From NCBI GenBank assembly GCA_965115835.1, contig OZ220471.1:1486157-1550156 (forward strand): DNA of 64,000 nucleotides, read 5' to 3'. The DNA comes from Gammaproteobacteria bacterium. GTDB lineage: Bacteria; Pseudomonadota; Gammaproteobacteria; Steroidobacterales; Foliamicaceae. Position 1 is the stretch's first letter, and each line of letters starts with the position of its first letter. The position numbers were made by a program, and so were the translations under genes. The notes under the pieces are model-generated. The model ran no database searches and was not told the DNA's origin. It saw only the letters and a list, made by a program, of their open reading frames with translations. Positions 26,253-47,396 of this stretch are shown piece after piece.

Positions 26253-27818
26253 TCAGCGTCCCTTTCTGGCCATTCTTCTGAGCCATTCCGACTCATCAAT
26301 CGCCACGCGACTCAGCGTTGTTCCAAAAGTCTGGGCGATCCTCTGTGCGTACTCGGCCTTGAGTTCACCCCGCCACTTGTATTGATTTTCACAAGTATCC
26401 GTAAACTCGAAGTCGCCATCGGATTCCCGCTTTGCTGCGATTACGGCACCGCTGCCCGTCGATGGTTTGAATTTGCGGAGAACCCAACCATCTGGATCAC
26501 GTTCGATGCCCAATCGCTCGAATTTGTCATCAATTCTGGCGACAATCTGGTCCATTCCCTTCTTGGGTTCAACCAGCGGCAGGAAAAAGAACATTGTCTC
26601 TCCTTTCAATCTCACGCAATCACATCGAGGTCTCATGCAGATCAAATGCTGTTTGCCGCCAGCCTCGGACACCGTAACGACGGTACCCAGCCACAATGTC
26701 GGTGGCGGCGCACCATACACCGTTCGGAAACTCATGATCCAAGCCAACCGCTTGTCAAGGTCGCCGGCATTCTGACCGGAGAAGCCGGCGGAGAGACCTT
26801 CAAAGTTTTTATTTTTCAATGCACTCGCTGCAAAACCTTGGTTCGCCAACTCAATGGTCTTCTCCAGATCGAGATCCTGACCGCCGAACACGAAACTCTC
26901 GGTTCCTTGCCCCTTGCGTCGTATCCAATTCTCGACAGCCTTGGCGCTTGCGGGAGACGCTTCCGCAACAGCGTTGTCCATCAGGCCTCGAAGCTCTTCG
27001 GCCACATGGTTCACGATCTGCCGTTCCGCATCGTGCGGGTCGGATAGACATGCCCTGTGAGCAAGAAACGCCGGATCCAACTCCGCACTAAACCGGTCCA
27101 GTACCTTGTGCGCGCCTTCTCGCACTGCGGCCAACGAGGTGATTGCGATGCCGGGAAGCAGCCCCGCAGTCATTGAGGCGAAATCATCGACTAGCCGGCC
27201 GGGAAGATCCTCCTCCGCGACACTCCGATCCTTCAGTGATGCCGCCAGATTCACACCGGACTTTGCATAAAGGACAACCCGACCATGCCGGTATGAAATT
27301 TCCATTCCAGTCCCATTCCGCTTTGGCTCAAGTCCGCCATCTTTCAGCGCGTCCAAAACTTTTGCGCCGATATCCTCCAGCCGTGCCTCACCAGTGTAAA
27401 TCGCCACGAGACGGAGGGAATTACGATCTGCTTCTCCAGTCAGCAAATCCCAAATCAACTTCAGCGCGTACTGAGGCTTGCCATCCTTCAAAAGCCAGTC
27501 GAGGATCACGATGTCGGCCTGCCTCATCGTTTCCATTGCTGAATCCGTGGGACCGACCACACCGCAGATGACGCCAAGCGCTGAAAACGCATCCATGACG
27601 GAACCTGCGTTCAGGGTGTGTATCAAACTGCGATCAACTGCTCCCTCATTATCCCGGCTTGATGCCCGCATGCGCCGGCCCGGCGCCACCAACCCCGACT
27701 CTGGTCGATCACCCCCGACCAATCGCATGCGCGCCTCGTCGTCTACCACTACCGCCGTATGGAGAAAACGCTGCGCGAAGGCAACGCTGCCATATCTCGA
27801 TTCGCCCGCCAACGCCAT
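26253..27818 (-). CDS. Receiver (CheY-like) domain protein with an uncharacterised ~330-aa C-terminal domain
   Basis: ATG 27818 preceded by AGGGGAAAG. CheY-like landmarks in order: VVVDDE, ADIVILDW (putative phospho-Asp), LVAIYTGE, VVLYAKSG. I recognise no motif in the C-terminal part (CMRPRCDCVRL...FFFLPLVEP...). Confidence 0.6.
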   Translation of the reverse strand: MALAGESRYGSVAFAQRFLHTAVVVDDEARMRLVGGDRPESGLVAPGRRMRASSRDNEGAVDRSLIHTLNAGSVMDAFSALGVICGVVGPTDSAMETMRQADIVILDWLLKDGKPQYALKLIWDLLTGEADRNSLRLVAIYTGEARLEDIGAKVLDALKDGGLEPKRNGTGMEISYRHGRVVLYAKSGVNLAASLKDRSVAEEDLPGRLVDDFASMTAGLLPGIAITSLAAVREGAHKVLDRFSAELDPAFLAHRACLSDPHDAERQIVNHVAEELRGLMDNAVAEASPASAKAVENWIRRKGQGTESFVFGGQDLDLEKTIELANQGFAASALKNKNFEGLSAGFSGQNAGDLDKRLAWIMSFRTVYGAPPPTLWLGTVVTVSEAGGKQHLICMRPRCDCVRLKGETMFFFLPLVEPKKGMDQIVARIDDKFERLGIERDPDGWVLRKFKPSTGSGAVIAAKRESDGDFEFTDTCENQYKWRGELKAEYAQRIAQTFGTTLSRVAIDESEWLRRMARKGR

Positions 27819-27827
27819 CACTTTCCC

Positions 27828-30785
27828 CTATAGTTCTTTCACTGGCGCCACGCCGAATGTCGCGCCACCGTCGCCTTCGAGCAACTGAAGATCGAAGCCG
27901 ACCCGGCGCAGAGTTTCCCGTCCGATGTACAACCCCATCCCTCGGCCACCGGGCTTTCTGCTGAAGCCGAACTCGAAAATCGCCTCCCGGTCGCGGACAT
28001 CGACCCCCGGTCCGCTATCGGCGACGAGCAATGCGCCGCCGCGCTCATCAAGCTCGATAGTTCGTTCCAACTGGGGGTTCTGTTGCGAAAGCCAAAAGAT
28101 CGCGTTGTCCACCAAATTCACAAAGACGGGATAGAAGCTCGAGGGGAAGCCGATGATCCTGGCGTCGTCGAAGGCTCTTGTCGCCTTGAAGGACACGTCA
28201 TGGCGCGCCAAACGCGCGCGGAACAGCTCCTCCAGAAAGTCCCGAATCTCGGAACCACGGATTTCCACCGCCTTCCTGTAGAGTCGCCGCTGCAACGGCG
28301 TAAACAGCGTCAGATATCCGTCGAGGTGATCGAAGCTTGCTCGAATACTGTTGTACAGTTCGCCCAATCCCTCGTTCACATCGGCCCAGGCTTTCAGTTT
28401 TCGCAAGCCAGTGCGAATCGACCGTATCGTGCCGGAGAATTCATGGTTGATGATCTCGATAGCCATTCCCAACTGTGCCAACTGCGCATCAGCCTCGGCT
28501 TCCTCCTCCAGCAAAAGATTGCGTTGCTCGATCGCCATCAATTGTTCGGCTGTCGAGCTCTCACCTGTCACGTCCACCGCCTGAAGCTGCTCCAACACCG
28601 AGCGTAACAATGCTCCCTGTTTTTCGGCGACTTTCAGTACCCTGGCCTCCAACGCGCTTCTGGTTTCGACGAGACACTCGTCGGTCATTCCCGCCAGATC
28701 GTTCCGTTGAAATTCGCTTAGCACCTCCCGCAGTTCCGACTCGGCAATCTTGAGGGACCGTCCCGCTACCTCTCGCGCTTTCGAGGCGACCTTGTCCGCT
28801 TCCGCCCTCACTGCCCGACCTGATTCGCCCGTCGTCTTTCGCGCCTCGCGCACAAGGCCATCCAGTGCCGCTTCTGCCCTGACGCGACGGTCTAGCGACA
28901 ACCTTGCCTTCCGAACCTCCTCACCAATCATGTCTTCCATAAGCTCGCGAGACGGCCGGAACACATTCTCCTGAAGCAAGGCGAACTCCGCGTTGTAGAC
29001 GCTCCAGTCGCGAAGCGTGGCTTTGCTGAGTCCGATTCGTGGACGCGCTATACGGTAACGCGCCACCAGACTCCTGATATCTGCTTGCGCCTGACGTTCA
29101 AGAACAAGAATTTTTTGCGCCGCCAACTGGCTGTCCGCCATGCTGCATACCGCTTGCAGCTCCTTCTCGACACGTCCCGCCAAAGCCAAGGCTTCATTCT
29201 GAGGTTCGTTGTTCTTGAGCTTATCGAAAAAACAGTCCAAACTCTCCTTGAATATTTTCTTCCTCTCCGCGACCCGTTTTTGTCGTTGTTTCCTGGCCTC
29301 ATCCTCTCTCGAAAGCTCGGCCTTTCGCTGATCGAATTTGTCAGCGTGCATCCCTTTGACCCGGAAAAAGTCCGCTGCCATCTGAAAAAAGAAGTTCTGG
29401 AGAATCGAACGGAACTGACGGTACGCCTTGTTCTGTTGGAATCCCTCTCGTCCTGCTTTTTCCAACAGATCCCCATTATTGTCCGCGTCGATCCACACGG
29501 CCCCAAACATTTTCCTGTGTGAGAAATAGTAGTAGGAAGCGCTCTTTGTTCGCCTGAATTCGATGTCCAGCCAATCGTAGTCGGTGTTGCCATAAGGCAG
29601 TACGCGAACCCCGTTCCGGTATATGTAGAGTCCTCCCAACCGCTCGGTCTTGCGTGCCAATGTCGCATACTCTTCGTCAGGAATCGTCGAGTATTTCTCC
29701 TCGCCCTCGAAAGCGGCGAAGTCGATTGAGAACGGACCACAGCGTGTGGGCACGCCACGCCCGCCGCCCCATGGGATAACGTGATCGGCTGTCGTCTCAC
29801 CATAGATTGAAACCTCTCCCTTGAACTGACCGAATTCGTCGAAGTCACCGCGCACCCGGTGATCCGCATCCCCGAACTCTTCCGGGGTGAAGAACTCATC
29901 CTCGGCAATCAGCTCTTTGGTCAACTCGTCCGTCTTGTGATCGCGAAACGCAGTGTGGATCACAGGCTGCGAGTCTGGTGTCATGGTGTTACTGAATCCA
30001 AGCAACGCTTTCATCAGGGGCGGTGCTTTTTTCAACGCAGCCGCCTTGCTCGCTGCGGGGTCTCCGTCGATATCATCCGCCAGTAACGGCGATGCGGGCT
30101 TGATGATGAAGTGTGTTCCGCTGCTGCTCGCACCAGCGAGTGACGGCTTTTCAAGGTAGGAGTCGATGTCTTGCGGATCAATATCGAATTGATCCAGTTC
30201 TGCCAGAAGCTTCTTCAACAATCGCCTCTCGACATCGCGGCCGACAATTTTGGCGCTCGCACGAAATTCTTCCACCATGTCAGCTACATCCTGTGCCGAA
30301 GGCAAAGAGCCCGCTGTAAATGACCGCAGGGGTATTTCGACGTCTTCCAGGTCGATGCCGGGCCATTCGAATACGCCCCAGTTCAGGAACGCTGCGGTGA
30401 GGTCGGAGGCTCCGTCATCAGCCTTCGGGCGAGTGAGAACCAGAAGCTGCGGGCCGATAGTCGCAATCGCAAGCCTTCCGATCCCCTTCTCTCCCAGCAT
30501 CGGCCGCGGTTCCTTATCTGGATATTGCGGTGGCCGTTGATTCGGATCGAACTTGCTTTCCGTGCCGATCGTCAGCCATCGCGTCACGAAGTCGTCCCGG
30601 CTCATCCCGACGCCATCGTCTCTGAGTACAAACAGGCCATCCGAGCGGTAATAGTCGATCTCGACGCGATCAGCATAGGCGTCGTGCGCATTCTTGAACA
30701 GTTCGCTGATCGCGGTCGGAATGCCGGCAATCTGTTGCCGACCGAGCATGTCTAGTGTGCGAGCGCGCGTCTTGAAGGTTGCCAT
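27828..30785 (-). CDS. Double-GHKL protein: N-terminal MORC/Hsp90-like ATPase + coiled coil + C-terminal histidine-kinase core (DHp + CA)
   Basis: N-terminal Bergerat motifs ISELFKNAHDA, RDDGVGM, GEKGIGRLA. A ~350-aa helical Glu/Arg/Ala-rich middle. H-box-like AIEIINHEFSGTIRSIR, then a second ATPase (FVNLVDNAIFW, VADSGPGV, GGRGMGLYI). The ATG at 30785 shares 1 nt with the dcm stop. Confidence 0.75.
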   Translation of the reverse strand: MATFKTRARTLDMLGRQQIAGIPTAISELFKNAHDAYADRVEIDYYRSDGLFVLRDDGVGMSRDDFVTRWLTIGTESKFDPNQRPPQYPDKEPRPMLGEKGIGRLAIATIGPQLLVLTRPKADDGASDLTAAFLNWGVFEWPGIDLEDVEIPLRSFTAGSLPSAQDVADMVEEFRASAKIVGRDVERRLLKKLLAELDQFDIDPQDIDSYLEKPSLAGASSSGTHFIIKPASPLLADDIDGDPAASKAAALKKAPPLMKALLGFSNTMTPDSQPVIHTAFRDHKTDELTKELIAEDEFFTPEEFGDADHRVRGDFDEFGQFKGEVSIYGETTADHVIPWGGGRGVPTRCGPFSIDFAAFEGEEKYSTIPDEEYATLARKTERLGGLYIYRNGVRVLPYGNTDYDWLDIEFRRTKSASYYYFSHRKMFGAVWIDADNNGDLLEKAGREGFQQNKAYRQFRSILQNFFFQMAADFFRVKGMHADKFDQRKAELSREDEARKQRQKRVAERKKIFKESLDCFFDKLKNNEPQNEALALAGRVEKELQAVCSMADSQLAAQKILVLERQAQADIRSLVARYRIARPRIGLSKATLRDWSVYNAEFALLQENVFRPSRELMEDMIGEEVRKARLSLDRRVRAEAALDGLVREARKTTGESGRAVRAEADKVASKAREVAGRSLKIAESELREVLSEFQRNDLAGMTDECLVETRSALEARVLKVAEKQGALLRSVLEQLQAVDVTGESSTAEQLMAIEQRNLLLEEEAEADAQLAQLGMAIEIINHEFSGTIRSIRTGLRKLKAWADVNEGLGELYNSIRASFDHLDGYLTLFTPLQRRLYRKAVEIRGSEIRDFLEELFRARLARHDVSFKATRAFDDARIIGFPSSFYPVFVNLVDNAIFWLSQQNPQLERTIELDERGGALLVADSGPGVDVRDREAIFEFGFSRKPGGRGMGLYIGRETLRRVGFDLQLLEGDGGATFGVAPVKEL

Positions 30786-31867
30786 CAGGATAGTTTTCCC
30801 ACATCCCTCAGATGTTCGATGAATTGATGACCGATGAGTTTTGCCAAACGAACCGGTACCGCATTCCCGATTTGTCTTGCCATCGACGCCATGCTTCCCT
30901 CAAAAACGAAGTCTTCGGGAAATGTTTGCAAGCAAGCCGCCTCCCGGATACTGATGGCCCTATCCTGCTCCGGATGGCCGAAGCGTCCGTTCGAGTAGCT
31001 CGTGCATCGCGTGGTAAGCCCTGATGCGGGCGCGTCCCACGACATCCGGCCATAGACATCGCTATAGCCCGAAAACCCCTTGTGGCAATCGAGCATCAGG
31101 CGTTGCGGCCAATCCCGATTGCCACCACCTTCAGGCGTTGCCTCTATACGCTCCAGATTGCGCGCGGAAAGATGCGCTGCCCTGTGGTTGGGCACTTCCT
31201 GATGCTCTTCCCCCGCCCGAATCGGCGGAAGATGAGCGATCCAGTCCCCGACCGTGGAGTATTCCTCGTTGGCCGTTCCTGGCCCGTGCGTCTCATCAGG
31301 CAAGCGAACCACACCATGAAGGCTCCCTACCAGGACGAGCCGACGGCGGCTTTGAGGTATCCCGTATTTGGCAAGCAATACAGGTCGGTAGTCCACCTTG
31401 TAACCCGCTTCGTCCAGTCGCCGCAGGAAGTCGCCGAAAGGCTGGCTGTCTGCGGACAACTGCTGTAGTCCCGGGACATTCTCCACAAACACAAGATCGG
31501 GCCGACAACCTTCTACCAAACGAGCAAAATGGACAAGCAGAGGGACACGATCATCCTGGCTGGGCTCCGGCCGTGTCGTATTCTGTTTGGTGAAGGGCTG
31601 ACACGGCGCACAGCCGCTGAAAAGCACCGGATTTGATCGCTCGGTGTCTACCCGGGATCGGACCATCTCGACATTCACCTTGCGGATATCCGCAAACTCG
31701 AAATGCGCGTCGGGGAAGTTGGCCTCGAAGCTTGCCCGAGCGCCCATATCGTAGTCCAGCGCGAACATGATCTTCATCCCGGCGGCCCGGAAACCGCAAC
31801 TCGCGCCGCCACATCCGGCAAAGAAGTCGTATACCTCCACAGTCGCCAAGTCGCTACGGTGGGTCAT
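30785..31867 (-). CDS. dcm: DNA (cytosine-5)-methyltransferase
   Basis: Motif I DFFAGCGGAS, motif IV GCAPCQPF, motif VI FVENVPG, QSRRRL, C-terminal GNAVPV. The ATG at 31867 overlaps the vsr stop (ATGA). Confidence 0.9.
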   Translation of the reverse strand: MTHRSDLATVEVYDFFAGCGGASCGFRAAGMKIMFALDYDMGARASFEANFPDAHFEFADIRKVNVEMVRSRVDTERSNPVLFSGCAPCQPFTKQNTTRPEPSQDDRVPLLVHFARLVEGCRPDLVFVENVPGLQQLSADSQPFGDFLRRLDEAGYKVDYRPVLLAKYGIPQSRRRLVLVGSLHGVVRLPDETHGPGTANEEYSTVGDWIAHLPPIRAGEEHQEVPNHRAAHLSARNLERIEATPEGGGNRDWPQRLMLDCHKGFSGYSDVYGRMSWDAPASGLTTRCTSYSNGRFGHPEQDRAISIREAACLQTFPEDFVFEGSMASMARQIGNAVPVRLAKLIGHQFIEHLRDVGKLS

Positions 31868-32442
31868 GTTTGCGCACCGGTATGAGGCATGAAGGCACAT
31901 CCGGTCCGTGACCCCGCGTCCGACCTTTCCGGCACCGACAGGGAACGTCCCTGCGAGTCGGATACCGACATCGAGACTTGGTTTTTGGCGGTTGTGGCCA
32001 ACGGGATGTTCTTCGGCTCATCAGTAGCCCTTCTGCGGGTGACCGATGCGGCCAGCTTGTGCGCCACAAGCGTCTGGTCCTTGGTTTCGCACTGCCAGAT
32101 GACGAGGGTCCGCCAGCCATGTGCCCTCAGGGCCGCTTCCTGGCGGGCGTCCCGGGCGACATTGGCAGCGAACTTCTCCGTCCAGAAGGCGATTCGGGAC
32201 TTGGGGGTGGATGCGTACCGGCAGCCTTCATGCCGATGCCAGAAGCAACCGTGCACGAACACAGCCAGCCGATGTTGCGGGAACACCAGATCCGGTCTAC
32301 CCGGAAGATCGGTGCGATGCAGGCGGAAACGCAGGCCCATCCTGTGGGCTATTCGACGAACCGCCAGTTCAGGTGTGGTATTGCGGCTGCGTATGCCCGC
32401 CATCAGTTCGCTTCGCCGCCTGCTGTCCACGATGTCGGTCAT
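31864..32442 (-). CDS. vsr: Very short patch repair endonuclease
   Basis: RRSELMAGIRSRNTTPEL, LPGRPDLVFPQHRLAVFVHGCFWHRHEGC, FWTEKF, VIWQCE. About 40 extra C-terminal residues. The ATG at 32442 overlaps the hsdS stop (ATGA). Confidence 0.9.
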   Translation of the reverse strand: MTDIVDSRRRSELMAGIRSRNTTPELAVRRIAHRMGLRFRLHRTDLPGRPDLVFPQHRLAVFVHGCFWHRHEGCRYASTPKSRIAFWTEKFAANVARDARQEAALRAHGWRTLVIWQCETKDQTLVAHKLAASVTRRRATDEPKNIPLATTAKNQVSMSVSDSQGRSLSVPERSDAGSRTGCAFMPHTGAQT

Positions 32443-33584
32443 GCCGTGTCCTCCAGGAGGCGGAACATGAGGGAGGCATTCAGCGTTGCAGCAATACGAC
32501 AGGCAAGCTCCATACGCTTGACTGTGGCTTGCGCTGCCTTGGCAAGTGCTGCGAATCGAGCCTGTTCATCAGGTGGAGGATGCGGCACTGGCAATAACAT
32601 CAGCGCTTTCATGTCGGTTCGCGGCATTCGGGAACCGGTCACAGACGCCATGACATGTTCAACAGTTTCCTTTTGCCGAAGCAATTGCGCGACGAAGTCG
32701 CGATTGATTCCCTCTCGGGGGAGAAGTGGAATCAACTCGGTAGAGCATCTGCCAGCGAATTCGGGAGTAGCGACTTTGTTCAGATAGGGCCGAAGCTTCG
32801 CATAGAGAACATGACGCTTGTCGAATCGAAATGTTGCGCTTCTTTGATTGCCTGTGCGTGAATCGTTATCGAGGTTGATCGCACCTGTGTGCGGCTCGAC
32901 ATTTTCGACGCCCACAAACGGAAGTCGCGATAAAGCCGGGTTGTTCGGATCCAGTCCTTGACGATCCACCACGCAAATTTCGCGGAGTGCACAAACTGGC
33001 CACCCCATCGGGTTTGCGGCAGGATCGCCGAACATCTTCACAAACAGCGCGGGCATGAATTCCCGCATCAACTCCCGCGCCTGCGCCCGCAGCCGTTCGA
33101 TCTTCGCCGCTCGGTTCAGGATGCCGGCAATCCGCCGCTGCTCGTCGAGCGAAGGAAGGGGGACCGGCAGCAACATCAGCGCTTTCATGTCGGTTCGCGG
33201 CATTCGAGAACCGGTCACAGACGCCATGACATACTCAACGGTCTGTTTTCGCCGAAGCAGATGGGCAACGAACTCGCGATCCACACCATCCCGAGGAAGA
33301 AGTGGAACCAGTTCGGTCGAGCACTTGCCCGCAAAATCAGGGGTTACGACCTTGTTCAGATACGGTCGGAGCTTTGAATAGAGAATATGGCGCTTGTCAA
33401 ACTGGAAAGTTGTGCTCCTTTGACTCCCGACACGTGAGCCGTTGACGAAATTAAGGGCACCGTTTTGGGACTCGACATTCTCGACGCCCACGTAGCGAAG
33501 CCCCGCCGCGGCAGAGTCGTCCGGATCAAGACCTTGGCGATCCATCTCACAGAGATCACCCAGCTTTACGACCGGGAAGCTCAT
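32439..33584 (-). CDS. hsdS: Type I restriction-modification specificity subunit with two near-duplicate target-recognition domains
   Basis: Two repeats of the pattern VGVENVE...FDKRH.LY.KLRPYLNKV.TP.FAG.CSTEL.PLLPR...MASVTGSRMPRTDMKALMLLPVP, separated by the conserved helical spacer LDEQRRIAGIL. Confidence 0.9.
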   Translation of the reverse strand: MSFPVVKLGDLCEMDRQGLDPDDSAAAGLRYVGVENVESQNGALNFVNGSRVGSQRSTTFQFDKRHILYSKLRPYLNKVVTPDFAGKCSTELVPLLPRDGVDREFVAHLLRRKQTVEYVMASVTGSRMPRTDMKALMLLPVPLPSLDEQRRIAGILNRAAKIERLRAQARELMREFMPALFVKMFGDPAANPMGWPVCALREICVVDRQGLDPNNPALSRLPFVGVENVEPHTGAINLDNDSRTGNQRSATFRFDKRHVLYAKLRPYLNKVATPEFAGRCSTELIPLLPREGINRDFVAQLLRQKETVEHVMASVTGSRMPRTDMKALMLLPVPHPPPDEQARFAALAKAAQATVKRMELACRIAATLNASLMFRLLEDTA

Positions 33585-33771
33585 TCCCCCACCGCCTCCA
33601 TTACGGCCTCGGCGAGGTCGTCGATCTCGGCGAGGATTTGCGTCTCGATGCCTCGCAGGTCCTTGAGGATGTCCAGCGGTTCGCGGCGCTCTACCTTCGC
33701 GCGGCTCAATGGCCGGTGGCGGTTGGCGCTGAGGTTGAAGTCGGCGGCGCGGATGGCGTCGGCCCCGGCGA
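33581..33771 (-). pseudogene. Orphan 3' fragment of hsdM (last ~63 codons), still ATGA-coupled to hsdS
   Basis: Encodes ADAIRAADFNLSANRHRPLSRAKVERREPLDILKDLRGIETQILAEIDDLAEAV..., nearly identical to the C-terminus of the full hsdM at 35752-37416. The DNA repeat 33603-33771 vs 35807-35975 has 5 mismatches in 169 bp by my alignment. Confidence 0.8.
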
Positions 33772-33852
33772 CCTCATCAAGCAGCAGAAATCGTTCATGC
33801 ACGGCCACTCTGTCTTGGCGCCTGTCCCTTCGGGCGCTTATGACAGGCATCC

Positions 33853-34386
33853 TCACGCCGCTGTCGCCGCCGCATGTTCCCAAAGGCCGAGATCGCGCAG
33901 CAGGGCAACCGCTTTTTCGATGCGCTCGTCCGTCGCCTTGAGCGGCTTGCGCGCCTTCGTTTCCTCGACCGGGTCGATCTCTCCCTTGCCGTAGTAATCC
34001 CACTCATCACGCAGGAAAACCATGGTTGCAGCCAACTCCAGAACGATATCCGACGCCCCCTTCAGCTTGTCCAGAAAAGCACTGGCCTGGCAAGCCGAAA
34101 GCGCGCCAAGAGGTGGCGGCGGCTCCTCTTTCGACTTGAAAATTGCATAGGGCACTCCGTGGCGTCCTGGTTTTTCTTCCATGGTGATTCGTTTTTCCGC
34201 CAGCGCATCGGTTAATCCGTCAACCAGATCGAAGCAATACGGCCCATAGTGGTGATAGATGAATCGCAGGCCGAAATTTGCGCCACAGCGGTCCAAGAGA
34301 TAGGCCTGCTTCTGCAGCCGGGTTCGACCGATCAGTTCGCCGCCGTTCAGCGCGACCAAGCCAGTTACGATTTCTTCCACATTCAT
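33853..34386 (-). CDS. Panacea/DUF4065 (SocA-like antitoxin domain)-like protein, 177 aa
   Basis: GRTRLQKQAYLLD...FIYHHYGPYCFDLVDGL resembles the KLQKLLY...YGP core of DUF4065 as I remember it. The ATG at 34386 overlaps the HD gene stop (ATGA). Family assignment is tentative. Confidence 0.45.
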   Translation of the reverse strand: MNVEEIVTGLVALNGGELIGRTRLQKQAYLLDRCGANFGLRFIYHHYGPYCFDLVDGLTDALAEKRITMEEKPGRHGVPYAIFKSKEEPPPPLGALSACQASAFLDKLKGASDIVLELAATMVFLRDEWDYYGKGEIDPVEETKARKPLKATDERIEKAVALLRDLGLWEHAAATAA

Positions 34387-35738
34387 GTTGCCACCTCCTT
34401 CAGGATTTTTTGCAGCTCCTTGGTGCGAGCCGCATCGGGCGCGTAGACGCGCTGGATGCGTTTGCCATGCCGAAGCGTTTGCACGACATCGGATTCACCA
34501 ACGATATCGGTTGGCTCGCCTGCATCGTCTCGCGTCTTCACCAGAACTTTTTTCAGAGCCGATGTGTCGTCGAAGTTATAGGCCTTGTATGACGCAAACG
34601 GCGCGTCGTCGAAAATAACCTCGTCCTTCCATCCCCAAGGCTTCTCATTCAGACACCGCCTGAACCGGAGGAACAGATTGCCATTCCACTCATCACAGAC
34701 TCCGATATCGACGCACTTGTAGAGTACGCGATCCCGCAACCGTCTCGCCAATCCCGAAATCCGCTTGTCCGAAAAATCGGAATAAATCGACAAGGCGGCC
34801 CAGACCGACGCATCGTCGAGAGCAAGATAGGAACCGAGCGTTGGCGTGTCGGATTTCAGATAGCACAGAACCGGTTCTCGGCTCGCCACTTCCCTCCCTA
34901 CTGTATCCGACGCAATGACACCCATGAGGGTCTCCAGCATCTTTTCGGCGGCCCTTGTAGTCTTGTGCATATAAACCATCCGGTAAAGACGCGACCGGGC
35001 TTCCAGATACTCCTCGGCTACCTGAAAGCCCTTTGGACCGAGATAGAAGCATGGCGCCTTGATCGGATCCGTATTTCCGATGGTTACCTTCCCGACCTCA
35101 AGGCAATCAAGCAACCAGTCAAGATCGATATGTCCGAACTGCACACCGGTCATCAGTCGGTCCCGCTGCATGTAGTCGAGCCGGTCGGCGTCAAACTGGC
35201 TCGACACGATAGCGCTGTAAATGTCCTTCTGGCTGTCTTCGGTTAGAAGTGCGCCGATCTGGTTTGGCAAGTCCTCGTCCGCCTCTCGGAGCACTTGGTT
35301 GACTCTGGTGTCGCTCCTTACGATCTCGGTACTCCATTCTTCGTGTCGTCGCTGCTGCCGACCCATAATCGTGGCGGACTCAAACACATGACTGAAGGGT
35401 CCGTGCCCGATATCGTGCAGTAGGGCCGCCAAAAGCGCGACACGCTCGCGTTCCGGATCGTGAGCATGACCCAACCGCCGTGCGATGACGTCAGCCAACC
35501 GCCGCGCCATGTGATACACGCCAACGCTGTGGGCAAACCGGCTATGGGTCGCACCGGGAAAAACGAGATCGGAGAAGCCCAACTGACGGATGCGGCGCAG
35601 TCGCTGAAACTCGGGCGCATTCATCAGGCTCCAGGCGATCCGGTCTGTTTTGTTCCGATGAACGTTGGCACTGCCCCCGAACACAATCAGTCCATGAATC
35701 GGGTCGCGTATCCGCTGCGTTTGTTTGCTGTTCCCCAT
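34383..35738 (-). CDS. SAMHD1-like HD-domain dNTP triphosphohydrolase
   Basis: IRDPIHGLI, EFQRLRRIRQLG, THSRFAHSVGVYH, ALLHDIGHGPFSH, FDADRLDYMQRD, YMHKT. ATG 35738, 13 nt after the hsdM stop. Confidence 0.8.
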   Translation of the reverse strand: MGNSKQTQRIRDPIHGLIVFGGSANVHRNKTDRIAWSLMNAPEFQRLRRIRQLGFSDLVFPGATHSRFAHSVGVYHMARRLADVIARRLGHAHDPERERVALLAALLHDIGHGPFSHVFESATIMGRQQRRHEEWSTEIVRSDTRVNQVLREADEDLPNQIGALLTEDSQKDIYSAIVSSQFDADRLDYMQRDRLMTGVQFGHIDLDWLLDCLEVGKVTIGNTDPIKAPCFYLGPKGFQVAEEYLEARSRLYRMVYMHKTTRAAEKMLETLMGVIASDTVGREVASREPVLCYLKSDTPTLGSYLALDDASVWAALSIYSDFSDKRISGLARRLRDRVLYKCVDIGVCDEWNGNLFLRFRRCLNEKPWGWKDEVIFDDAPFASYKAYNFDDTSALKKVLVKTRDDAGEPTDIVGESDVVQTLRHGKRIQRVYAPDAARTKELQKILKEVAT

Positions 35739-35751
35739 CACCCCAGCCCGT

Positions 35752-37416
35752 TCAGCAGTCCGAAATGCGAGGAGCCAAGGCCGGACTGGATGAAGTCTCT
35801 TCCCGCACGGCCTCGGCGAGGGCGTCGATCTCGCCGAGGATTTGCGTCTCGATGCCTCGCAGGTCCTTGAGGATGTCCAGCGGTTCGCGGTGCTCTACCT
35901 TCGCGCGGCTCAATGGCCGGTGGCGGTTGGCGCTCAGGTTGAAGTCGGCGGCGCGGATGGCGTCGGCCTCGGCGAACCACCAGTTCGCGGTCCAGTTCTC
36001 GTTTGGATCGCGGCCTTGCCATTCCGCCCACCGTGCGTCGCGGTCACGGAACGCCTCGATCAGGCCAGGCAGGTCGTCTTCGTCAATGGGCGTGTCGTGG
36101 TTGGCGTCAAGCTTGTAGCCGTCGTTCTCGGCATGCAGGAACATCACCCGCTCCGTCGCCCCGCCCTTGCGGAACGCCAGCACCGAGGTCTTGACACCGG
36201 AATAGGGATTGAACACGCCGCCCGGCAGCGACAGCACCGCCTCCACCCGGTTGTTCTCGATCAAACGGCGGCGCAGTTCCTTGTGCGCCCCGGTGGAGCC
36301 GAACAACACGCCTTCCGGCGCCACCACGCCGCAGCGCCCGTCTTCCCGAAGGTGGTTCAGCATGTATTGCAGGAACAAAAGTTCGGTTTGCGCCGTGCGC
36401 CCAACCTTCACTTCCTCTACGATGCGGTCGCGGTCCAACCGCCCGGAGAACGGCGGATTGGCAAGAATCACGTCGAACCCGTCCGGCGGCAGGTCGAGCT
36501 CCGCCTTCGCCGCGCGGTCGAGCGAGCGGGTGAGCGCGTCGCGGCGCAGGATGCGCACCTTGTCCAGCCCGCGCAGCGTCAGGTTCATGGTGGCGAGGCG
36601 AACCATCTGCGGATCCACATCGGCGCCGTGAAAAGTCCCCTCCTGCAACTGCCGAACCGCATCACGCCCCAGCGTGTCGCCGAGGCCGCGCCGCACGGCC
36701 TTGCCGTCGGCCTCCACTTCCTCGATCCCGGCGGACGAGGAGTTCGCCAGACGGATATGGTCCCATGCGCCCACCAGGAAGCCCGCCGTGCCGGCCGCCG
36801 GGTCGTAAATCGTCTCGCCGATCCGCGGATCGACCAACCGCACCAAGGCGCGGATCACGTGGCGCGGCGTACGAAACTGGCCGAGTTCGCCCGCCTGACG
36901 AATCTGCCGCAGCACATGCTCGAACAGGTCGCCCTTGGTGTCGGCGTCTACCCGATCGAGACGCAGGTCGTTCAACTGACTGACGACCTGGGTGAGCACC
37001 GTCGGCTCGTCGATCACCAGCCGGGCGCCGTCCATGAAGTCGGTGACGCCGTTCGTCGCAAGCTCGGCATGGAACGCAAAGACCTCTTCGCGCACCCAAG
37101 CGACCAGACGCTCGCCGTTCAGCGCCTGCGCCCAGGACGACCAGCGCAAGAGTTCGCGCGGCACACTCTTCGCATCGGACGCATGGGCGTTGCGCGGGTC
37201 GCGCAGCGCCCATTGGCCCTCGTAGGCGCTGGCGTACGGAACGGCGCCAGGCTTTTGCGCCGCCCGTGCCCGGGCCGCGTCCGCCGCTTCGTGCATGTAG
37301 AAGTAGATCAGGAAACTCAACTGCTCGGCGTTCTGGGCCGGGTTCGGGTAGCCGCCTCCAAACAGATAATCGCGGATGCGGTCGATGCCGCGACGGAGCT
37401 CCGGGGTCATGGGCAT
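35752..37416 (-). CDS. hsdM: Type I restriction-modification DNA methyltransferase subunit (N6-adenine)
   Basis: GQFRTPRHV, motif I IYDPAAGTAGF, motif IV ILANPPF, LFLQYML. ATG 37416 with GGAAGGA upstream, 4 nt after the hsdR stop. Confidence 0.9.
   Translation of the reverse strand: MPMTPELRRGIDRIRDYLFGGGYPNPAQNAEQLSFLIYFYMHEAADAARARAAQKPGAVPYASAYEGQWALRDPRNAHASDAKSVPRELLRWSSWAQALNGERLVAWVREEVFAFHAELATNGVTDFMDGARLVIDEPTVLTQVVSQLNDLRLDRVDADTKGDLFEHVLRQIRQAGELGQFRTPRHVIRALVRLVDPRIGETIYDPAAGTAGFLVGAWDHIRLANSSSAGIEEVEADGKAVRRGLGDTLGRDAVRQLQEGTFHGADVDPQMVRLATMNLTLRGLDKVRILRRDALTRSLDRAAKAELDLPPDGFDVILANPPFSGRLDRDRIVEEVKVGRTAQTELLFLQYMLNHLREDGRCGVVAPEGVLFGSTGAHKELRRRLIENNRVEAVLSLPGGVFNPYSGVKTSVLAFRKGGATERVMFLHAENDGYKLDANHDTPIDEDDLPGLIEAFRDRDARWAEWQGRDPNENWTANWWFAEADAIRAADFNLSANRHRPLSRAKVEHREPLDILKDLRGIETQILGEIDALAEAVREETSSSPALAPRISDC
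35807..35975. repeat. 169-bp direct repeat (copy 2) of the hsdM 3' end; copy 1 is 33603-33771
   Basis: Aligned by eye base by base: 164 of 169 identical. The two copies bracket the HD/Panacea-like cassette. Confidence 0.85.
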
Positions 37417-37420
37417 GCGC

Positions 37421-39568
37421 TCATCCTTCCCCGGCGCGAGTGCCTTCGTCCGCGCCACTGCCAGCCCGCCGGGAGCCGAACACCGCAGCGTTGATTCCAG
37501 CAATCAGCTTGCCCAGCGATTCCTCGCCGCCGAACACGCGCCGCGCCTGATCGTAGCCCCCGAGCGTGGAGAACGGGTGTTCATCAAGGGTCCATGCGCC
37601 GATGCCGTCCATGCTCGGCGCGTCAGCCCGCACCCGGTTACCGATCAGCCCGGCCCAGCGCGCCTGTTCCGCGTTGAAATCGCCGTGCTCTTCCCGCCAC
37701 GACTCGAAACGCACACCGACCTCTGCCGCACGCGCCTCGTGCTCTGGCGTACGAACGATGCGGCCATTCTCGTCGAGCGTCAGCCACTCGCGGCTCGCCG
37801 GGTCGATATGGTCGTCCACATCCAGCGTCAGAAGCCCGCGGGGCTTGGCCGAGCCGGGGCGACGGTCGGTGTCGTGGACCGGACGGCCAGCAATATCCTC
37901 CTCTTCGTCTCCGTGAAAGTCCGTCACGCCCACAAAATCGAAGATCGTGAACCCGGTCTTGCCGATATGGTCCGCCTTGCGCGTACCGCGCCCGCGCATC
38001 TGCCGGTAGAGGATCGCGCTTTGCGTGAACCGCGCCATGACGAGGCTCACGACCTCCGGGCAGTCGAACCCGGTGTCCAGCATGTTCACGCTAACGAGAA
38101 TCTTCGGGTAGTCCTCTTCCTTGAAGCGCTTGATGATGGCGCTCGCATCGGGCGCCGGACCGCCGCCGACATCGCTCACCACGAAGTCTGCATAGCGCGT
38201 CGTTGGATGCGGCTTCCGATCCGCGTAGTGCGCGTCGAACATCTCCGCCAGAGTCTCGGCATGGCGCCGGGTCACCGCAAATACGAGGGTCTTGCCTGAC
38301 TTCGGCCAGCGGCGGACGCCGTCTCGGCCCATGAAACCCTTCTCGTGCGCATCGCGGAACTCACGCACCAGGGCGCGGTTGCGCTCCGGGATGGTGAACT
38401 TGCGCTCCAGCCCCTGCGGGTCCACCGTAATCGGGTCCGAATCGGCGAACAGCGCCTCGAACCCTTCACGCGTCTCCCGATCCATCGCGCTCCAGTCGAG
38501 TTCGTCGCGGCGAACCTCGAACCCGTCTTCGGCGGCGGTCTTCACCGTCATCGCCTTGTAGATGCGGTAGGGCACGAGATAGCCTTCCTCGATGGCCCGG
38601 GGCAGCGTGTAGCGGAAGGTGGGTTCGTCGAGCCCGAAGAAGCGCAGCGTATCGCGCACAAACCGCCCCTCTTCCGTTTTGGGAGATGTGCCAGCCTCTG
38701 CCGTGCAAGGCGTTGCCGTAAGGCCGAGCTGGATGGAATCGAAGTGCCGCAACACGCCGCTGTACTGGCCGTAGATCGAGCGGTGGCACTCGTCCGTAAT
38801 GACCAGATCGAAATAACCCGGCGAGAGGGTGCGGAACTCGGCGATCATGGTCTGGAGGGTCGCAATCGTGATGCGCTTGGCCCGGTCGAACTGCCGGCCG
38901 GGCCGCAGCACATGGCAGGGATAGTCCCGCAGATGGTCGGTGAAGGCGTCCTCGGCCTGCCGCGCCAGGGCGATCCGGTCGACCAGAAACAGCACGCGGG
39001 TGACAATCCCCGCCTCGAACAGCCGCTTGATGAAGGCTGCCGCCGTGCGGGTCTTGCCGGTTCCCGTCGCCATCTCGACCAGGAGCTTGCGCCGCCCGAG
39101 CGAGATCTCGGCGGACAGCGCCTCGACGCATTCGATCTGATAGTCGCGGTCGACGATCCTGGAGTCGATGGTGACCGCCGACAGATCGCGGCAACTCCGG
39201 CGCGCGGCGATGCGCCGCTCCAGGTCGTCCTGAGCGTAGAAGCCCGCGATCTTCCGCGCGTGGGAGTCGGTCTTGCGGTCGAGGAACCGCACTTCCTCGC
39301 CGTTCGAAAGAAACATGAACGGCACACCGAGTTGTTCGGCGTAGTGCTTGCCCTGATCCTGCGCCGCGATGGGATCGGCGCCCGCGCGCTTGGCTTCCAG
39401 CGCCGCCATGGGCCGGCCCTGCCGGTTGCAGAGCACATAGTCGGCCTGCGTCCCGTCGGGCAGCGCGTACTCGAACAGGACGCTCGAACCGTCGGTGAGG
39501 TCCCAGCCTGCATCCTTGAGCAGCGCATCAATCTTCACTCGCGCGAAGGCTTCCGTCGTGCCACTCAT
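37421..39568 (-). CDS. hsdR: Type I restriction enzyme R subunit (EcoEI-like, short form)
   Basis: N-terminal nuclease core (ADYVL...ALEAKR), helicase motifs MATGTGKT, DECH (ITDECHRS), LGLTATP, QMRGRGTR. The C-terminal region is EcoEI_R_C-like. Confidence 0.9.
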   Translation of the reverse strand: MSGTTEAFARVKIDALLKDAGWDLTDGSSVLFEYALPDGTQADYVLCNRQGRPMAALEAKRAGADPIAAQDQGKHYAEQLGVPFMFLSNGEEVRFLDRKTDSHARKIAGFYAQDDLERRIAARRSCRDLSAVTIDSRIVDRDYQIECVEALSAEISLGRRKLLVEMATGTGKTRTAAAFIKRLFEAGIVTRVLFLVDRIALARQAEDAFTDHLRDYPCHVLRPGRQFDRAKRITIATLQTMIAEFRTLSPGYFDLVITDECHRSIYGQYSGVLRHFDSIQLGLTATPCTAEAGTSPKTEEGRFVRDTLRFFGLDEPTFRYTLPRAIEEGYLVPYRIYKAMTVKTAAEDGFEVRRDELDWSAMDRETREGFEALFADSDPITVDPQGLERKFTIPERNRALVREFRDAHEKGFMGRDGVRRWPKSGKTLVFAVTRRHAETLAEMFDAHYADRKPHPTTRYADFVVSDVGGGPAPDASAIIKRFKEEDYPKILVSVNMLDTGFDCPEVVSLVMARFTQSAILYRQMRGRGTRKADHIGKTGFTIFDFVGVTDFHGDEEEDIAGRPVHDTDRRPGSAKPRGLLTLDVDDHIDPASREWLTLDENGRIVRTPEHEARAAEVGVRFESWREEHGDFNAEQARWAGLIGNRVRADAPSMDGIGAWTLDEHPFSTLGGYDQARRVFGGEESLGKLIAGINAAVFGSRRAGSGADEGTRAGEG

Positions 39569-44920: not shown

Positions 44921-45620
44921 CTCCGGAGCGATTCGCGGCCCCCTCCGGCGGCGTGGTGGGTCCGGCGGGTTCCGTGTCGCCTTCCGTCCGCTGCGCTTCC
45001 TGCGCCGCCTCTGCTTCCTGCGCCGTCGCATCTGCCTCCTGCGCTACCGCCTCGGCTTCCTGCGCTGTCGCCTCGGCCTCCTGCGTGAATCCCGTCCGAT
45101 CCCCGTCCTCCGCCTCTTCCTCGTCGTCCGAAGGCAGGGGTTCGGCGCCAGGCAAGGTCTCGATATCGCTCTCCTGCCCCACCACATGAACGGCGATTTC
45201 CTCGGTCACGTCCGCATGCAACTTGAGCACAACCCGGTGCTCTCCCAATTCCTTGATCGGGCCTTCCGGCATCTGGACCTCGGCGCGGGCAACTTCCACG
45301 CCCGCCTCCGAAAATCCGGCCGATATCTCGGCAGGACCCACCGAACCATAAAGCTTGCCTGCTGGTCCGGCGTTGGCCACGATGACCAGCGGCGCCGCTG
45401 CCCTGACCTGCCCGGCGCGCGCTGTCGTGGCCGCCATGCGCTCTTTCTCCAACGCCAGCAACTCCGCACGGCGCAGCTCGAACGCGGCGACCTGCTCATC
45501 GGTCGCCGGCGCCGCCTTGCCCTGCGGCAGCAGATAGTTGCGCCCATAGCCGGGGCGCACCTCCACGATGTCTCCGATGCCGCCGAGGCTCTCGACACGC
45601 TCCAGAAGAATAATCCGCAT
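44913..45620 (-). CDS. rplI: 50S ribosomal protein L9 with ~85-aa acidic C-terminal extension
   Basis: MRIILLERVESLGGIGDIVEVRPGYGRNYLLPQGKA. 235 aa, against about 150 usually. The tail is rich in (A/T)AQEAEA repeats. Confidence 0.9.
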   Translation of the reverse strand: MRIILLERVESLGGIGDIVEVRPGYGRNYLLPQGKAAPATDEQVAAFELRRAELLALEKERMAATTARAGQVRAAAPLVIVANAGPAGKLYGSVGPAEISAGFSEAGVEVARAEVQMPEGPIKELGEHRVVLKLHADVTEEIAVHVVGQESDIETLPGAEPLPSDDEEEAEDGDRTGFTQEAEATAQEAEAVAQEADATAQEAEAAQEAQRTEGDTEPAGPTTPPEGAANRSGDG

Positions 45621-45629: not shown

Positions 45630-45857
45630 CTATGCCTGCCGGTCCGTGTACGGCAGCAGGGCCAGAAAGCGGGCTCGCTTGACGGCCCGCGCCAACTGGC
45701 GCTGATAGCGTGCCGAAGTGCCGGTGGTGCGCGCCGGGATGATCTTGCCCGTCTCGCTGACGAACTGCCTCAGCAGGCCCACATCCTTGTAATCGATCTC
45801 CTCGATCCCTTCCGCAGTGAACCTGCAATAACGACGGCGGCGGTTGTAGCGATTCAT
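45630..45857 (-). CDS. rpsR: 30S ribosomal protein S18
   Basis: [65 protein letters not shown]. Confidence 0.95.
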
Positions 45858-46768
45858 TTCTCTTTCTCCCCGGCATCCTCGTGGTTGGCATCGTCTGCGG
45901 GCGGCGCATCGGAGGACTCGCCGGCGGCTTCCGCCTCGTCTTCGCCTGCGGCCGGGACTTTCTCCGCATCCGACCGCGCCGAACCGGGCGCAGCAGCATC
46001 CTCCGCGTCCGACTGCGCCAAACCGGACGCAGCAGCATCCTCCGCATCCGACTGCGCCGAACCGGACGCAGCAGCGTCCTCCGCATCCGACTGCGCCGAA
46101 CCGGACGCAGCAGCGTCCTCCGCATCCGACTGCGCCGAACCGGACGCAGCAGCGTCCTCCGCATCCGACTGCGCCGAACCGGACGCAGCAGCGTCCTCCG
46201 CATCCGACTGCGCCGAACCGGACGCAGCAGCGTCCTCCGCATCCGACTGCGCCGAACCGGACGCAGCAGCGTCCTCCGCATCCGACTGCGCCGAACCGGG
46301 CGCAGCAGCGTCCTCCGCACCAGTCTGGGCCGAATCACCGGCTGCCGCGGCGTCGCCGGCCGCGCGTCGCTCGCTCGCCGACGACTTCCGGCCATGGGCC
46401 AACTCGCGGTCGTAGGGATACTCCTTGCCCTCGCGCGCGGCCTCCCTTTCCGCAGCCTTTGCCAAAACCGACTGCTCCGTGATCGCATCGTCGCGACGTA
46501 TGACCAGGTGGCGCAGCACCGCGTCGCTGAAATGCAATGCGCCCACCAGCTCGTTCAGGGCCTCCTTGCCGCACTCCACGTTCATGAGCATGTAATGCGC
46601 CTTGTGAAACTTGGCAATGGGATAGGCAAGCATGCGCCGGCCCAGGTCCTCGTTGCGGTGGATCTGGCCGCCGCCGCCTTCGATGATGCCCACGTAACGG
46701 TCCATCATTACCCGGACTCGTTCGCTCTGATCCGGGTGGATCAGAAGCATGATTTCGTAATGTCGCAA
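45854..46768 (-). CDS. rpsF: 30S ribosomal protein S6 with ~175-aa repetitive acidic C-terminal tail
   Basis: TTG start at 46768 six nt after AAGGAG. (M)[17 protein letters not shown]... S6 core, then a 13-aa unit [13 protein letters not shown] repeated about 9 times. The stop overlaps the rpsR ATG (ATGA). Confidence 0.9.
45964..46314. repeat. 39-bp in-frame tandem repeat x 9 inside rpsF
   Basis: Unit ccgcatccgactgcgccgaaccggacgcagcagcgtcct. Unit boundaries checked at 45964 + 39n. The six units 46042-46275 are identical by eye, and the outer ones carry 1-4 substitutions. Confidence 0.9.
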
Positions 46769-47396
46769 GGAAAACTCCTTAGTGGTCTCAAGGCCGCCCG
46801 CCCGAGCGGTGCGGCTAAGGAAGTGTCCGCAAGGCAGCCCCGGCGAACGGACAACCCGCCGCCATCGCGCCGACCGGGCTGCCGCGGAGCCGCAGATTAT
46901 ACGCAAGCGCCGCGCACCGGCACGGCATGTTTCCGCCGGTTGGGCGACAACCGTACCCGTCCGCCGGGAAAAGGGCGCCGAGCCGATGTTCGCGCGGGAT
47001 CAGGCGCCCTGCCCGGCGGTCGCCCGCCCGACGCACCGGGGCAAACGCTTGCGAGCTGGATAACGCCGTTCCCGAATACCACTGTTCGCCGTCGCACCTG
47101 CTCCTGCAATGCGCATAACGCTTCGGTCGGGCCGTGAAACGGTCCGACATAAGGGGGCATCGGTGAACAAAATCGGGGAATCTCCTGCCGTTGCGGCGGT
47201 CGGGAATATCTGTTTCGCTGAACCTCCACGGTTCGCCCGAACGTTTACCGAACAATTCCGTCACGCCCGACCTGCACCCGCTCGCTCCGCCATGCCCGCC
47301 CTGACTGCTCCTGGCGAGCGCACGCCGGTATTTGCAACATCTCATCGCCCGGAATTCCGCAATCCGGAGATATACGGGCCGGCTGGCCGTTGCTGC

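Follow-up and report, generated by a model that had tools for sequence, protein, structure and literature searches.

The 64-kb stretch analysed here, called the window in the following, belongs to contig OZ220471.1 of a gammaproteobacterium of the family Foliamicaceae (Steroidobacterales). Its minus strand encodes a C5 cytosine DNA methyltransferase (Dcm), a histidine kinase with two GHKL-type ATPase domains and a receiver protein with a conserved C-terminal output module. These three genes are translationally coupled and are the core of a module that is co-inherited and transferred as a unit. With moderate confidence, and on the basis of sequence and genomic context, the triad is read as a restriction-modification-like (R-M-like) defence or addiction module that would be licensed by His-Asp phosphotransfer. 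The kinase/receiver pair and both of its Pfam domains (HEF_HK, PF19191, and Response_reg_2, PF19192) were defined in a purely computational study, which left the C-terminus of the receiver without a domain (Bellieny-Rabelo, Pretorius and Moleleki 2021, Genome Biol Evol; PMC8011034). New with respect to that study are the strict three-gene core in this subfamily, the pattern in which the module decays, a structural model of the output module and the fusion to a type I R-M operon.

Conservation and spread of the three-gene core

A scan of one genome per species yielded 80 loci, mostly from metagenome-assembled genomes, which were compared by translated searches with the proteins of the window. 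By our reading, the bin names of many of these loci look sponge-associated. The arrangement dcm-kinase-receiver, in the same order and with abutting coordinates, was complete in 63 of the 80 loci and in more than ten phyla (taxa with the triad include Pseudomonadales, Binatia, Acidobacteriota, Alphaproteobacteria, Cyanobacteria, Latescibacterota, Gemmatimonadota and Chloroflexota), which is far beyond chance. Loci without a complete triad are mostly explained by contig ends or local decay, and a dcm relative was missing in only four, two of which lie at contig ends. The identities of Dcm, kinase and receiver drop in parallel, from 87/84/81% to approximately 40–55/45–50/30%. In a preliminary description of the locus, made from the sequence alone, the kinase/receiver pair had been linked to dcm and vsr. 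The linkage to dcm proved to be strong, with kinase and receiver homologues co-occurring both with each other and with a cytosine methyltransferase, while vsr accompanies them in about half of the loci.

When all flanking open reading frames (ORFs) of the 80 loci were clustered, the only recurrent neighbours were Vsr (40 loci), hsdM (25 loci) and hsdR (15 loci), and no nuclease or helicase gene was found to travel with the triad. Since no neighbour other than Vsr and the type I genes is conserved and no nuclease co-travels, either the kinase or the receiver must contain the effector. The vsr gene (present in 40 of approximately 78 loci) precedes dcm or follows the receiver gene on the opposite strand; it is accessory and stands outside the three-gene core.

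The type I system that precedes the module in the window is a lineage-specific fusion to the triad. A block hsdR-hsdM-hsdS-(vsr)-dcm-kinase-receiver recurs across phyla with approximately 77–92% amino acid identity (L002, L004, L006, L008, L009, L011, L014–L016, L020, L024 and L043 of the survey, in genomes labelled Binatia, Pseudomonadales, Alphaproteobacteria, Paracoccaceae and Arenicellales), hsdS being its variable part (31–69% identity). Judged by these identities, a recent transfer of the fused double R-M unit between phyla is indicated, and the high identity across phyla likewise indicates horizontal spread of the module itself.

Decay of the module was uneven. Eight loci keep an intact dcm next to a kinase or receiver gene that is interrupted, truncated or frameshifted (L025, L038, L039, L040, L043, L049, L055 and L062), and in a ninth (L036) dcm and the kinase gene are both broken. 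The only loci that lack dcm at a distance from contig ends are L021 and L047, in which the 5' end of the kinase gene is also gone, and none of the 80 loci has an intact kinase and an intact receiver with no dcm nearby. In this small sample, such a pattern would be expected if the pair were harmful without the methylase.

In a plasmid collection only a degraded copy from Pseudomonas syringae and an unannotated Phocaeicola match were found. The P. syringae copy (L081, NZ_ON146836.1, 8715–9720) consists of an 82-aa ‘ATP-binding protein’ fragment and a 268-aa receiver fragment beside an IS5 transposase, and represents another instance of module decay. An E. coli ‘remnant integrative element’ next to prophage CP-1639 (L082, AJ304858.2, 2738–6332) encodes a HEF_HK kinase of 614 aa that has no N-terminal GHKL domain, and a Response_reg_2 protein of 582 aa that retains the C-x4-C-D motif of the output module (see below) in its C-terminal part; no dcm is adjacent. 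The methylase linkage is a property of this subfamily and not of the whole HEF_HK/Response_reg_2 family.

Domains of the kinase

Three Pfam domains were identified in the kinase above their gathering thresholds, namely HATPase_c_3 (PF13589) at residues 24–125 with 52 bits (cut-off 25), HEF_HK at residues 771–837 with 99.9 bits (cut-off 24.1) and HATPase_c (PF02518) at residues 884–977 with 55 bits (cut-off 26.4). All 29 diverse homologues examined match both PF19191 and PF02518, and 4226 kinase homologues were found altogether. The protein is of the soluble type (no transmembrane-like segment, maximum 19-aa hydropathy 1.07), and the receiver is devoid of membrane-like segments as well. The MORC/Hsp90-type Bergerat ATPase, the H-box-like helix and the second, histidine kinase-type ATPase that had been recognised by eye in the preliminary description were thus all recovered by profile searches, as was the receiver family.

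Conservation was determined with 73 homologues from genomes. In the N-terminal ATPase domain, the Bergerat motifs (E28, N32, D35, D56xGxG60 and G98EKGIGRLA) are conserved to at least 97%. This part of the protein matches the NCBIfam model NF050001 (BbrUII/HgiDII; positions 8–119, E 1.4e-18) and the PADLOC model REase_II (PDLC03419; E 2.4e-9), and gave weak matches to Hsp90 and MutL in the Protein Data Bank (PDB). The middle domain (approximately residues 221–480) is almost as conserved as the ATPase and kinase motifs. It has no match in Pfam or the PDB and no detectable sequence match to the transducer domains of MutL, MORC or GyrB. The linker that follows has a mean pairwise identity of only 0.33–0.50, compared to 0.7–0.9 in the flanking domains, and is plausibly a coiled coil.

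With a profile of the 29 homologues, residues 751–977 align with the kinase cores of ZraS, ThkA and HK853 (E approximately 1e-10), and H781-E782 falls on the phospho-His/Glu pair of these solved histidine kinases. The codons of H781 and of the phospho-acceptor D107 of the receiver were confirmed by translation. The H-box H781-E-F is conserved to at least 97%, and N890, N894, D923xGxG927 and G947xGxGL952 of the catalytic ATP-binding (CA) domain are likewise invariant (at least 97%). The DHp domain does not contain the H+4 Thr/Asn phosphatase motif, the sequence here being H781-E-F-S-G-T; that this motif is missing in PF19191 was pointed out previously (bioRxiv 10.64898/2026.02.27.708494). The signal may consequently be one-way, a trigger without kinase-driven reset. 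Residues 387–979 match phrog_8137 (E 2e-109), so that the kinase family also occurs in prophage and viral catalogues.

The receiver and its output module

The receiver domain matches Response_reg_2 with 93.2 bits (E 2.7e-26, cut-off 27), and D26, D27, D107, T142 and K186 are 93–100% conserved in 116 representatives of clusters formed at 50% identity. This agrees with the CheY-like landmarks reported earlier in the right order. In a Foldseek search against the PDB, the domain matched the receivers of PhoB, VbrR and PleD, and flavodoxins as well. Among 447 receiver homologues, the best 120 are all approximately 520 aa long. The C-terminal module is common to at least 1433 clusters at 50% identity, and the best 150 of the 1433 cluster representatives all have the same receiver-plus-module layout; the module was sought in other architectures, and none was found among these 150. 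The exact sequence of the receiver has no match to any record.

Residues 190–521 have no match in Pfam, NCBIfam, PADLOC or among PDB sequences, in line with the C-terminal domain of approximately 330 aa that the preliminary description could not assign. Structure prediction and fold search, which had been suggested there for this region, gave a good model and only marginal fold matches to MazF. The AlphaFold2 model was computed from an alignment of 124 sequences (down to 36% identity) and reached a predicted local distance difference test score (pLDDT) of 82.2 and a predicted template modelling score of 0.77. An earlier model from 61 sequences that were at least 63% identical had a pLDDT of 59 and was unusable in detail. 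The present model comprises the receiver with a disordered insert (residues 33–64), a helical domain (approximately residues 205–303), a hairpin plus helices (residues 308–363), a β-barrel (residues 379–486) and terminal helices. In the 116 representatives, R233, D248, E275, W298, C394, P397, C399, D400, R403, R504, E511 and W512 are invariant, and H254 of the helical domain is 94% conserved. A loop of the barrel carries the family-specific cluster C394-x4-C399-D400-x2-R403 (consensus C-x-Q-P-R-C-D-x-V-R-L). The barrel and tail are mildly basic (median isoelectric point, pI, of approximately 8.5), while the remainder is acidic. As modelled, the output part is a conserved globular module that corresponds to no known DNA-binding output.

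The top non-receiver Foldseek matches were MazF chains (E 3.8e-3 to 3.9e-2, probability 1.0, target TM 0.59–0.64), none of which reached an E-value of 1e-3. MazF was also the top match with the poorer first model. The topology of the barrel (β-β-short helix-β…, then a long helix) resembles that of MazF, Kid and CcdB in both models, and the barrel may tentatively be called MazF/CcdB-like, by fold only and not as a MazF homologue. Several candidate active sites were rejected. A PD-(D/E)xK site at ‘VEPKK’ (E417/K419) fails on conservation, another at D474/E485-x-K487 is conserved in only 44%, 70% and 68% of the sequences, and a HEPN-like R-x3-H (R233/H237) was discarded for its incorrect spacing and because the conservation of H237 reaches only 71%. 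A fold search of the receiver model against BFVD gave no useful match.

Methylase, Vsr and restriction genes

Dcm was matched by the DNA_methylase family (E 5e-52), and the motifs FAGCGG, PCQ, ENV, QSRRR and GNAVP are readable in the translation. All motifs of a C5-methylase are present, as had been stated. The target-recognition region equals the catalytic core in conservation (mean identity 0.69 vs. 0.64), so that one specificity is probably common to the loci. Comparison with solved methylases, the best matches being the DNMT1 and HaeIII cores, gave no basis for inferring the target sequence, and a segment-wise analysis of covariation of kinase and receiver with the target-recognition region was uninformative (correlations of at most 0.31). 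The Vsr protein of the window has a C-terminal extension of about 55 residues (window positions 31864–32050, residues approximately 135–192) that is poorly conserved, the matches of its relatives usually ending at residues 118–158.

The absence of a recognisable restriction endonuclease beside dcm, remarked upon in the preliminary description, was borne out, since none was matched and none co-travels. The hsdR gene shares the apparent operon but belongs to the separate type I system hsdRMS and is absent from most homologous loci. The two halves of HsdS are 70% identical over 149 residues, which suggests an internal duplication and a presumably symmetric recognition sequence.

Relation to described systems

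The preliminary description had regarded the architecture of kinase and receiver as new. This cannot be upheld, because the pair, including its linkage to C5-methylases and Vsr, is already described (PMC8011034). In that study the kinase and the receiver were linked in 91.6% of cases (644 regions of 628 strains), HATPase_c_3 + HEF_HK + HATPase_c was the dominant kinase architecture (174 of 222), C5-methylases were enriched upstream, Vsr was widespread and type I and II R-M genes were found around the pair; statistics of the linkage compared to shuffled genomes were also published. The authors proposed that the kinases branch from paraMORCs and form a cytoplasmic two-component system ‘controlling, directly or indirectly, R-M systems’. 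The locus of the window corresponds to ‘group 1’ of this family, with the same kinase architecture, an adjacent Response_reg_2 protein, soluble proteins, a C5-methylase upstream, Vsr nearby and R-M genes around; an architectural difference was not found.

MORC and paraMORC GHKL ATPases in R-M operons were described by Iyer, Abhiman and Aravind (2008, PMC2292703), who do not mention fusions to kinases or receivers. The kinase of the window shares with these proteins the N-terminal Bergerat ATPase with intact motifs, the R-M/dcm/vsr setting and the sporadic, laterally mobile occurrence. Whereas MORC and paraMORC proteins carry or adjoin nucleases or helicases (RE-fold, HNH, TIR, DUF4263), the GHKL domain is fused here to a histidine kinase core with a separate receiver, and no S5 or nuclease domain is recognised in the kinase. 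In the paraMORC3-type Shedu protein VcSduA, a GHKL domain gates a defence nuclease, and the exchange E27A abolishes defence (PMC12137116).

NF050001 and PDLC03419 were the best-scoring models for the N-terminus of the kinase. The BbrUII/HgiDII enzymes are restriction enzymes partnered with C5-methylases. Only the first approximately 110 residues of the kinase match, however, with 66.9 bits compared to a cut-off of 550 bits, and nothing in the protein corresponds to the remainder of the 659-aa model. Detocs, reportedly described by Rousset and colleagues in 2023, is said to consist of the kinase DtcA, the buffer receiver DtcB and the receiver-PNP effector DtcC. It can be seen as a functional analogue, being a defence system whose histidine kinase transfers phosphate to a receiver that is joined to a non-transcriptional effector. 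The module of the window differs from it by a GHKL ATPase as sensor, by the obligate linkage to a methylase and by a receiver without PNP domain. A buffer receiver, noted earlier as lacking, was not found either, the island containing a single receiver gene and the flanks of the survey loci no second recurrent one. The receiver has no match in PADLOC-DB v2, a release in which the presence of Detocs models was not verified. With classical Dcm-Vsr pairs accompanied by EcoRII-type restriction, the locus has in common the C5-methylase and Vsr, overlapping genes and self-protection by cytosine methylation, but a PD-(D/E)xK enzyme is absent here. The ‘HATPase/REC’ example of the DefensePredictor paper is a predicted system only and is not identifiable from the legend.

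Proposed mechanism and alternative explanations

In the proposed mechanism, a cytoplasmic His-Asp phosphorelay would replace a simple restriction enzyme. Dcm would mark the host DNA, and Vsr, where present, would limit the decay of 5-methylcytosine to thymine. The N-terminal GHKL domain and the middle domain would dimerise on ATP and probe DNA for unmethylated sites or for another cue of invasion, and the signal would pass along the helical linker to the DHp/CA core. Here, His781 would autophosphorylate and the phosphoryl group would be transferred to Asp107. Phosphorylation would then release the output module, i.e. the helical domain and the mildly basic MazF/CcdB-like barrel with its C394-x4-C399-D400-x2-R403 cluster, which would attack or bind nucleic acid or an essential target and so lead to restriction or abortive infection. 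In the window, the module is presumably fused with the type I R-M system into one operon. The context data are compatible with the similar scheme of the preliminary description, in which Dcm marks self DNA and the GHKL kinase would sense foreign DNA and phosphorylate a receiver-effector. A further step, taken only tentatively, is to regard the triad as a new class of R-M-like immunity. A MORC-type clamp would decide that DNA is unmethylated or foreign and would signal by a His-Asp relay to a novel receiver-fused effector (helical domain plus MazF/CcdB-like barrel with Cys-x4-Cys-Asp), which might restrict the invader or shut the cell down.

The conservation of the triad, the overlapping ORFs, the parallel divergence and the invariant catalytic residues speak for a phosphotransfer-licensed module, as do the alignment of the kinase core with solved kinases, the decay pattern, the horizontal spread, the missing phosphatase motif and the constant position of the output module behind this receiver. 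The best scores of the N-terminal GHKL domain against genuine restriction-enzyme models may be counted in favour of an R-M-like role, and so may the setting in a putative defence island (low-GC insert, type I R-M system, HD/dNTPase-like cassette).

Several points weigh against this interpretation. No nuclease family of Pfam, NCBIfam, PADLOC or PHROGs is matched by the kinase or the receiver. Comparison with the PDB by sequence and by fold yielded no nuclease beyond the marginal fold likeness to the endoribonuclease MazF, and no HEPN, PIN, TIR or other known effector domain was detected in either protein. The resemblance to MazF is itself marginal. A comparison of the output module with MazF, Kid, EndoA and ChpBK by hhalign was negative (probability of at most 1%; of the four sequences only that of E. 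coli MazF was verified), PemK was not matched by any of 33 receiver members in Pfam, and the catalytic Arg29 and Thr52 of MazF map to variable positions in a manual alignment, the family having the C-x4-C-D-x2-R cluster as an invariant site of its own. That the GHKL domain reads DNA or its methylation is our inference. In the wider family there are kinases without N-terminal GHKL domain and pairs without dcm (the E. coli CP-1639 element; groups 2–4 of PMC8011034), and the linkage to methylation is therefore not universal. The argument from decay relies on about a dozen metagenome-assembled loci, in which errors of assembly may account for frameshifts. Models for the two proteins are absent from PADLOC-DB v2, which lists neither even as a candidate, the match of REase_II to the first approximately 110 residues of the kinase being the only one obtained. 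Finally, a search of the full-text literature revealed no experimental study of any family member, and to this extent the earlier statement that the function had not been described experimentally was correct.

The main rival to the R-M-like reading is a regulatory two-component system, in which the kinase would sense an intracellular cue (the nucleotide pool or the state of the DNA) and the receiver would bind DNA and control the dcm/R-M genes or an epigenetic switch. It is established that R-M systems require controller proteins, both proteins of the pair show every hallmark of a kinase and a response regulator, and the helical bundle followed by a β-hairpin in the output module could hide a winged helix. 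Regulation is also the role proposed by the authors of the family (PMC8011034), whereas effector action is proposed here. A regulator would, however, have mostly only an orphan dcm to control, which is translationally coupled to the kinase gene and has no obvious operator or operator-sized gap. No helix-turn-helix or winged-helix family was found by profile searches in 33 diverse receiver members, apart from a faint match of one of them to the winged helix of CvfB (E 0.097). Foldseek gave no response-regulator output domain beyond the receiver, and the helical part is acidic (median pI 5.0). A kinase of 985 aa with a second, fully conserved MORC-type ATPase, together with an invariant output module of 330 aa, would be a heavy apparatus for a controller, and the loss of kinase or receiver with retention of dcm suggests that the pair is costly and not merely regulatory. 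A regulatory role is accordingly judged unlikely, though it merits consideration.

Surveillance of methylation damage or mismatches is considerably less probable. In that case the MutL-like GHKL kinase would detect T:G mismatches or hemimethylated sites together with Vsr and Dcm, and would signal or recruit repair. MutL stimulates Vsr in E. coli, the GHKL N-terminus matches MutL weakly, and vsr is a close neighbour in the window as well as in about half of the loci; the R-M contexts of MORC and paraMORC proteins were moreover paralleled with MutL/VSR repair by Iyer et al. (2008, PMC2292703). In contrast, the triad is constant, whereas about half of the loci have no Vsr, a phosphorelay output is without precedent in very-short-patch repair, and a mobile, readily decaying module in a low-GC island of defence genes is atypical of repair functions. 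It is hardly credible that the pair is an unrelated signalling system that happens to lie beside dcm-vsr in a defence island. Some distant family members do occur without adjacent dcm, but the recurrence of one gene order with abutting coordinates (63 of 80 loci), the overlapping codons, the parallel divergence of three proteins and the published statistics against shuffled genomes (PMC8011034) speak against mere neighbourhood, and the identity range of 30–87% excludes a single, recently spread clone.

The family is large, with thousands of kinase homologues besides the receiver clusters, and its function rests on prediction. If the phosphorelay-licensed reading is true, epigenetic self-marking would be coupled to two-component signalling in bacteria, and the members linked to a cytosine methylase would gain an explained partner. 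It would also be the first system of R-M type in which a phosphorelay links sensing to killing, and would offer a tractable prokaryotic model for the response of a MORC-type GHKL ATPase to the state of DNA or its methylation. The module, which moves between phyla at 60–85% identity, is a compact and portable candidate for cloning. If the pair is only a regulator, its interest is modest.

Organisation of the locus

The ORF list and Pfam searches revealed a chain of nine genes on the minus strand between 26.2 and 39.6 kb, leading from hsdR to the receiver gene (Table 1). The four co-directional genes of the preliminary description are all present as ORFs, and their overlapping or nearly touching junctions were read from the sequence exactly as claimed. 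The hsdS/vsr junction is ATGA (32442–32439), the vsr/dcm junction is ATGA (31867–31864) and the dcm/kinase junction is TGATG (30787–30783), while the stop codon TAG of the kinase gene (27830–27828) is followed by a 9-nt spacer, GGGAAAGTG, and the receiver ATG at 27818. For the receiver, a GTG one codon upstream is listed as an alternative start, giving 522 aa. The start of dcm is assigned to M12 of the longest ORF because of the ATGA overlap with vsr. Translation from the first codon of the longest ORF (31900) would give an overlap of 37 nt with vsr, but homologues align from ATG 31867 onward and favour this start. The hsdRMS genes and the genes inserted between them (32439..39568) form one translational chain with vsr. 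On the minus strand, a promoter-like match was obtained only upstream of hsdR (39976–39949), and the chain is compatible with a single long operon, for which the promoter evidence is weak.

The G+C content is 56–60% across 26–36 kb compared to approximately 66% in the flanks. The chain is bordered by a short-chain dehydrogenase gene on one side and by core genes (RidA-like, tsaB, dinG and dnaB) on the other.

Table 1. Genes of the minus-strand chain and domains of the kinase and receiver proteins (window coordinates).
Feature	Position	Strand	Remarks
Receiver-effector protein	26253..27818	-	521 aa, ATG at 27818, stop included; Pfam Response_reg_2 PF19192
Receiver (REC-like) domain, residues 19–189	27252..27764	-	Pfam; phospho-acceptor Asp107 codon 27498–27500
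C-terminal output module, residues 195–521	26256..27236	-	AlphaFold2: helical domain, hairpin + helices, eight-stranded β-barrel, terminal helices
Soluble double-GHKL histidine kinase	27828..30785	-	985 aa; HATPase_c_3 + HEF_HK + HATPase_c
N-terminal paraMORC/MutL-type Bergerat ATPase, residues 1–130	30396..30785	-	HATPase_c_3, E 1e-13
Middle domain, residues ~221–480	29346..30125	-	Conservation profile: D308-H309, GGLYxY, D404, E409, R412, EKAGREGF
Long helical/coiled-coil linker (plausible), residues ~481–760	28506..29345	-	Poorly conserved
DHp/H-box (HEF_HK), residues 771–837	28275..28475	-	PF19191, E 1e-28; phospho-His781 codon 28443–28445
Kinase catalytic ATP-binding (CA) domain, residues 884–977	27855..28136	-	HATPase_c, E 1.3e-14
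dcm, C5 cytosine DNA methyltransferase	30785..31867	-	360 aa from ATG 31867; PF00145 (E 5e-52), TIGR00675
vsr, very-short-patch repair endonuclease, accessory	31864..32442	-	192 aa; PF03852 (E 8e-28), TIGR00632 above cut-off
hsdS	32439–33584	-	Pfam/PADLOC
177-aa gene	33853–34386	-	Inserted between hsdM and hsdS
HD-domain gene	34383–35741	-	Inserted between hsdM and hsdS; Pfam/PADLOC
hsdM	35752–37503	-	Pfam/PADLOC
Type I hsdR	37421–39568	-	Pfam/PADLOC

The 2.2-kb insertion between hsdM and hsdS (33853–35741) is bracketed by a 169-nt direct repeat (33603–33771 and 35807–35975, 97% identical) that duplicates the 3' end of hsdM. One of the inserted genes encodes a protein of 452 aa with HD and HD_assoc_2 domains and weak dGTPase-like matches, and the 177-aa product of the other resembles the C-terminal part of DarG. 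In L002 and L004, hsdM abuts hsdS, so that the type I operon of the window has acquired a two-gene cassette by recombination. The two genes may represent a further defence or toxin-antitoxin pair.

Elsewhere in the window, a 39-nt tandem repeat (45962–46334, 9.6 copies, 96% matches) encodes the acidic Ala/Asp/Ser tail of a minus-strand ORF (45854–46906), the N-terminus of which resembles ribosomal protein S6 by eye. A second, shorter array with a period of 21/42 nt is located at 45005–45085.

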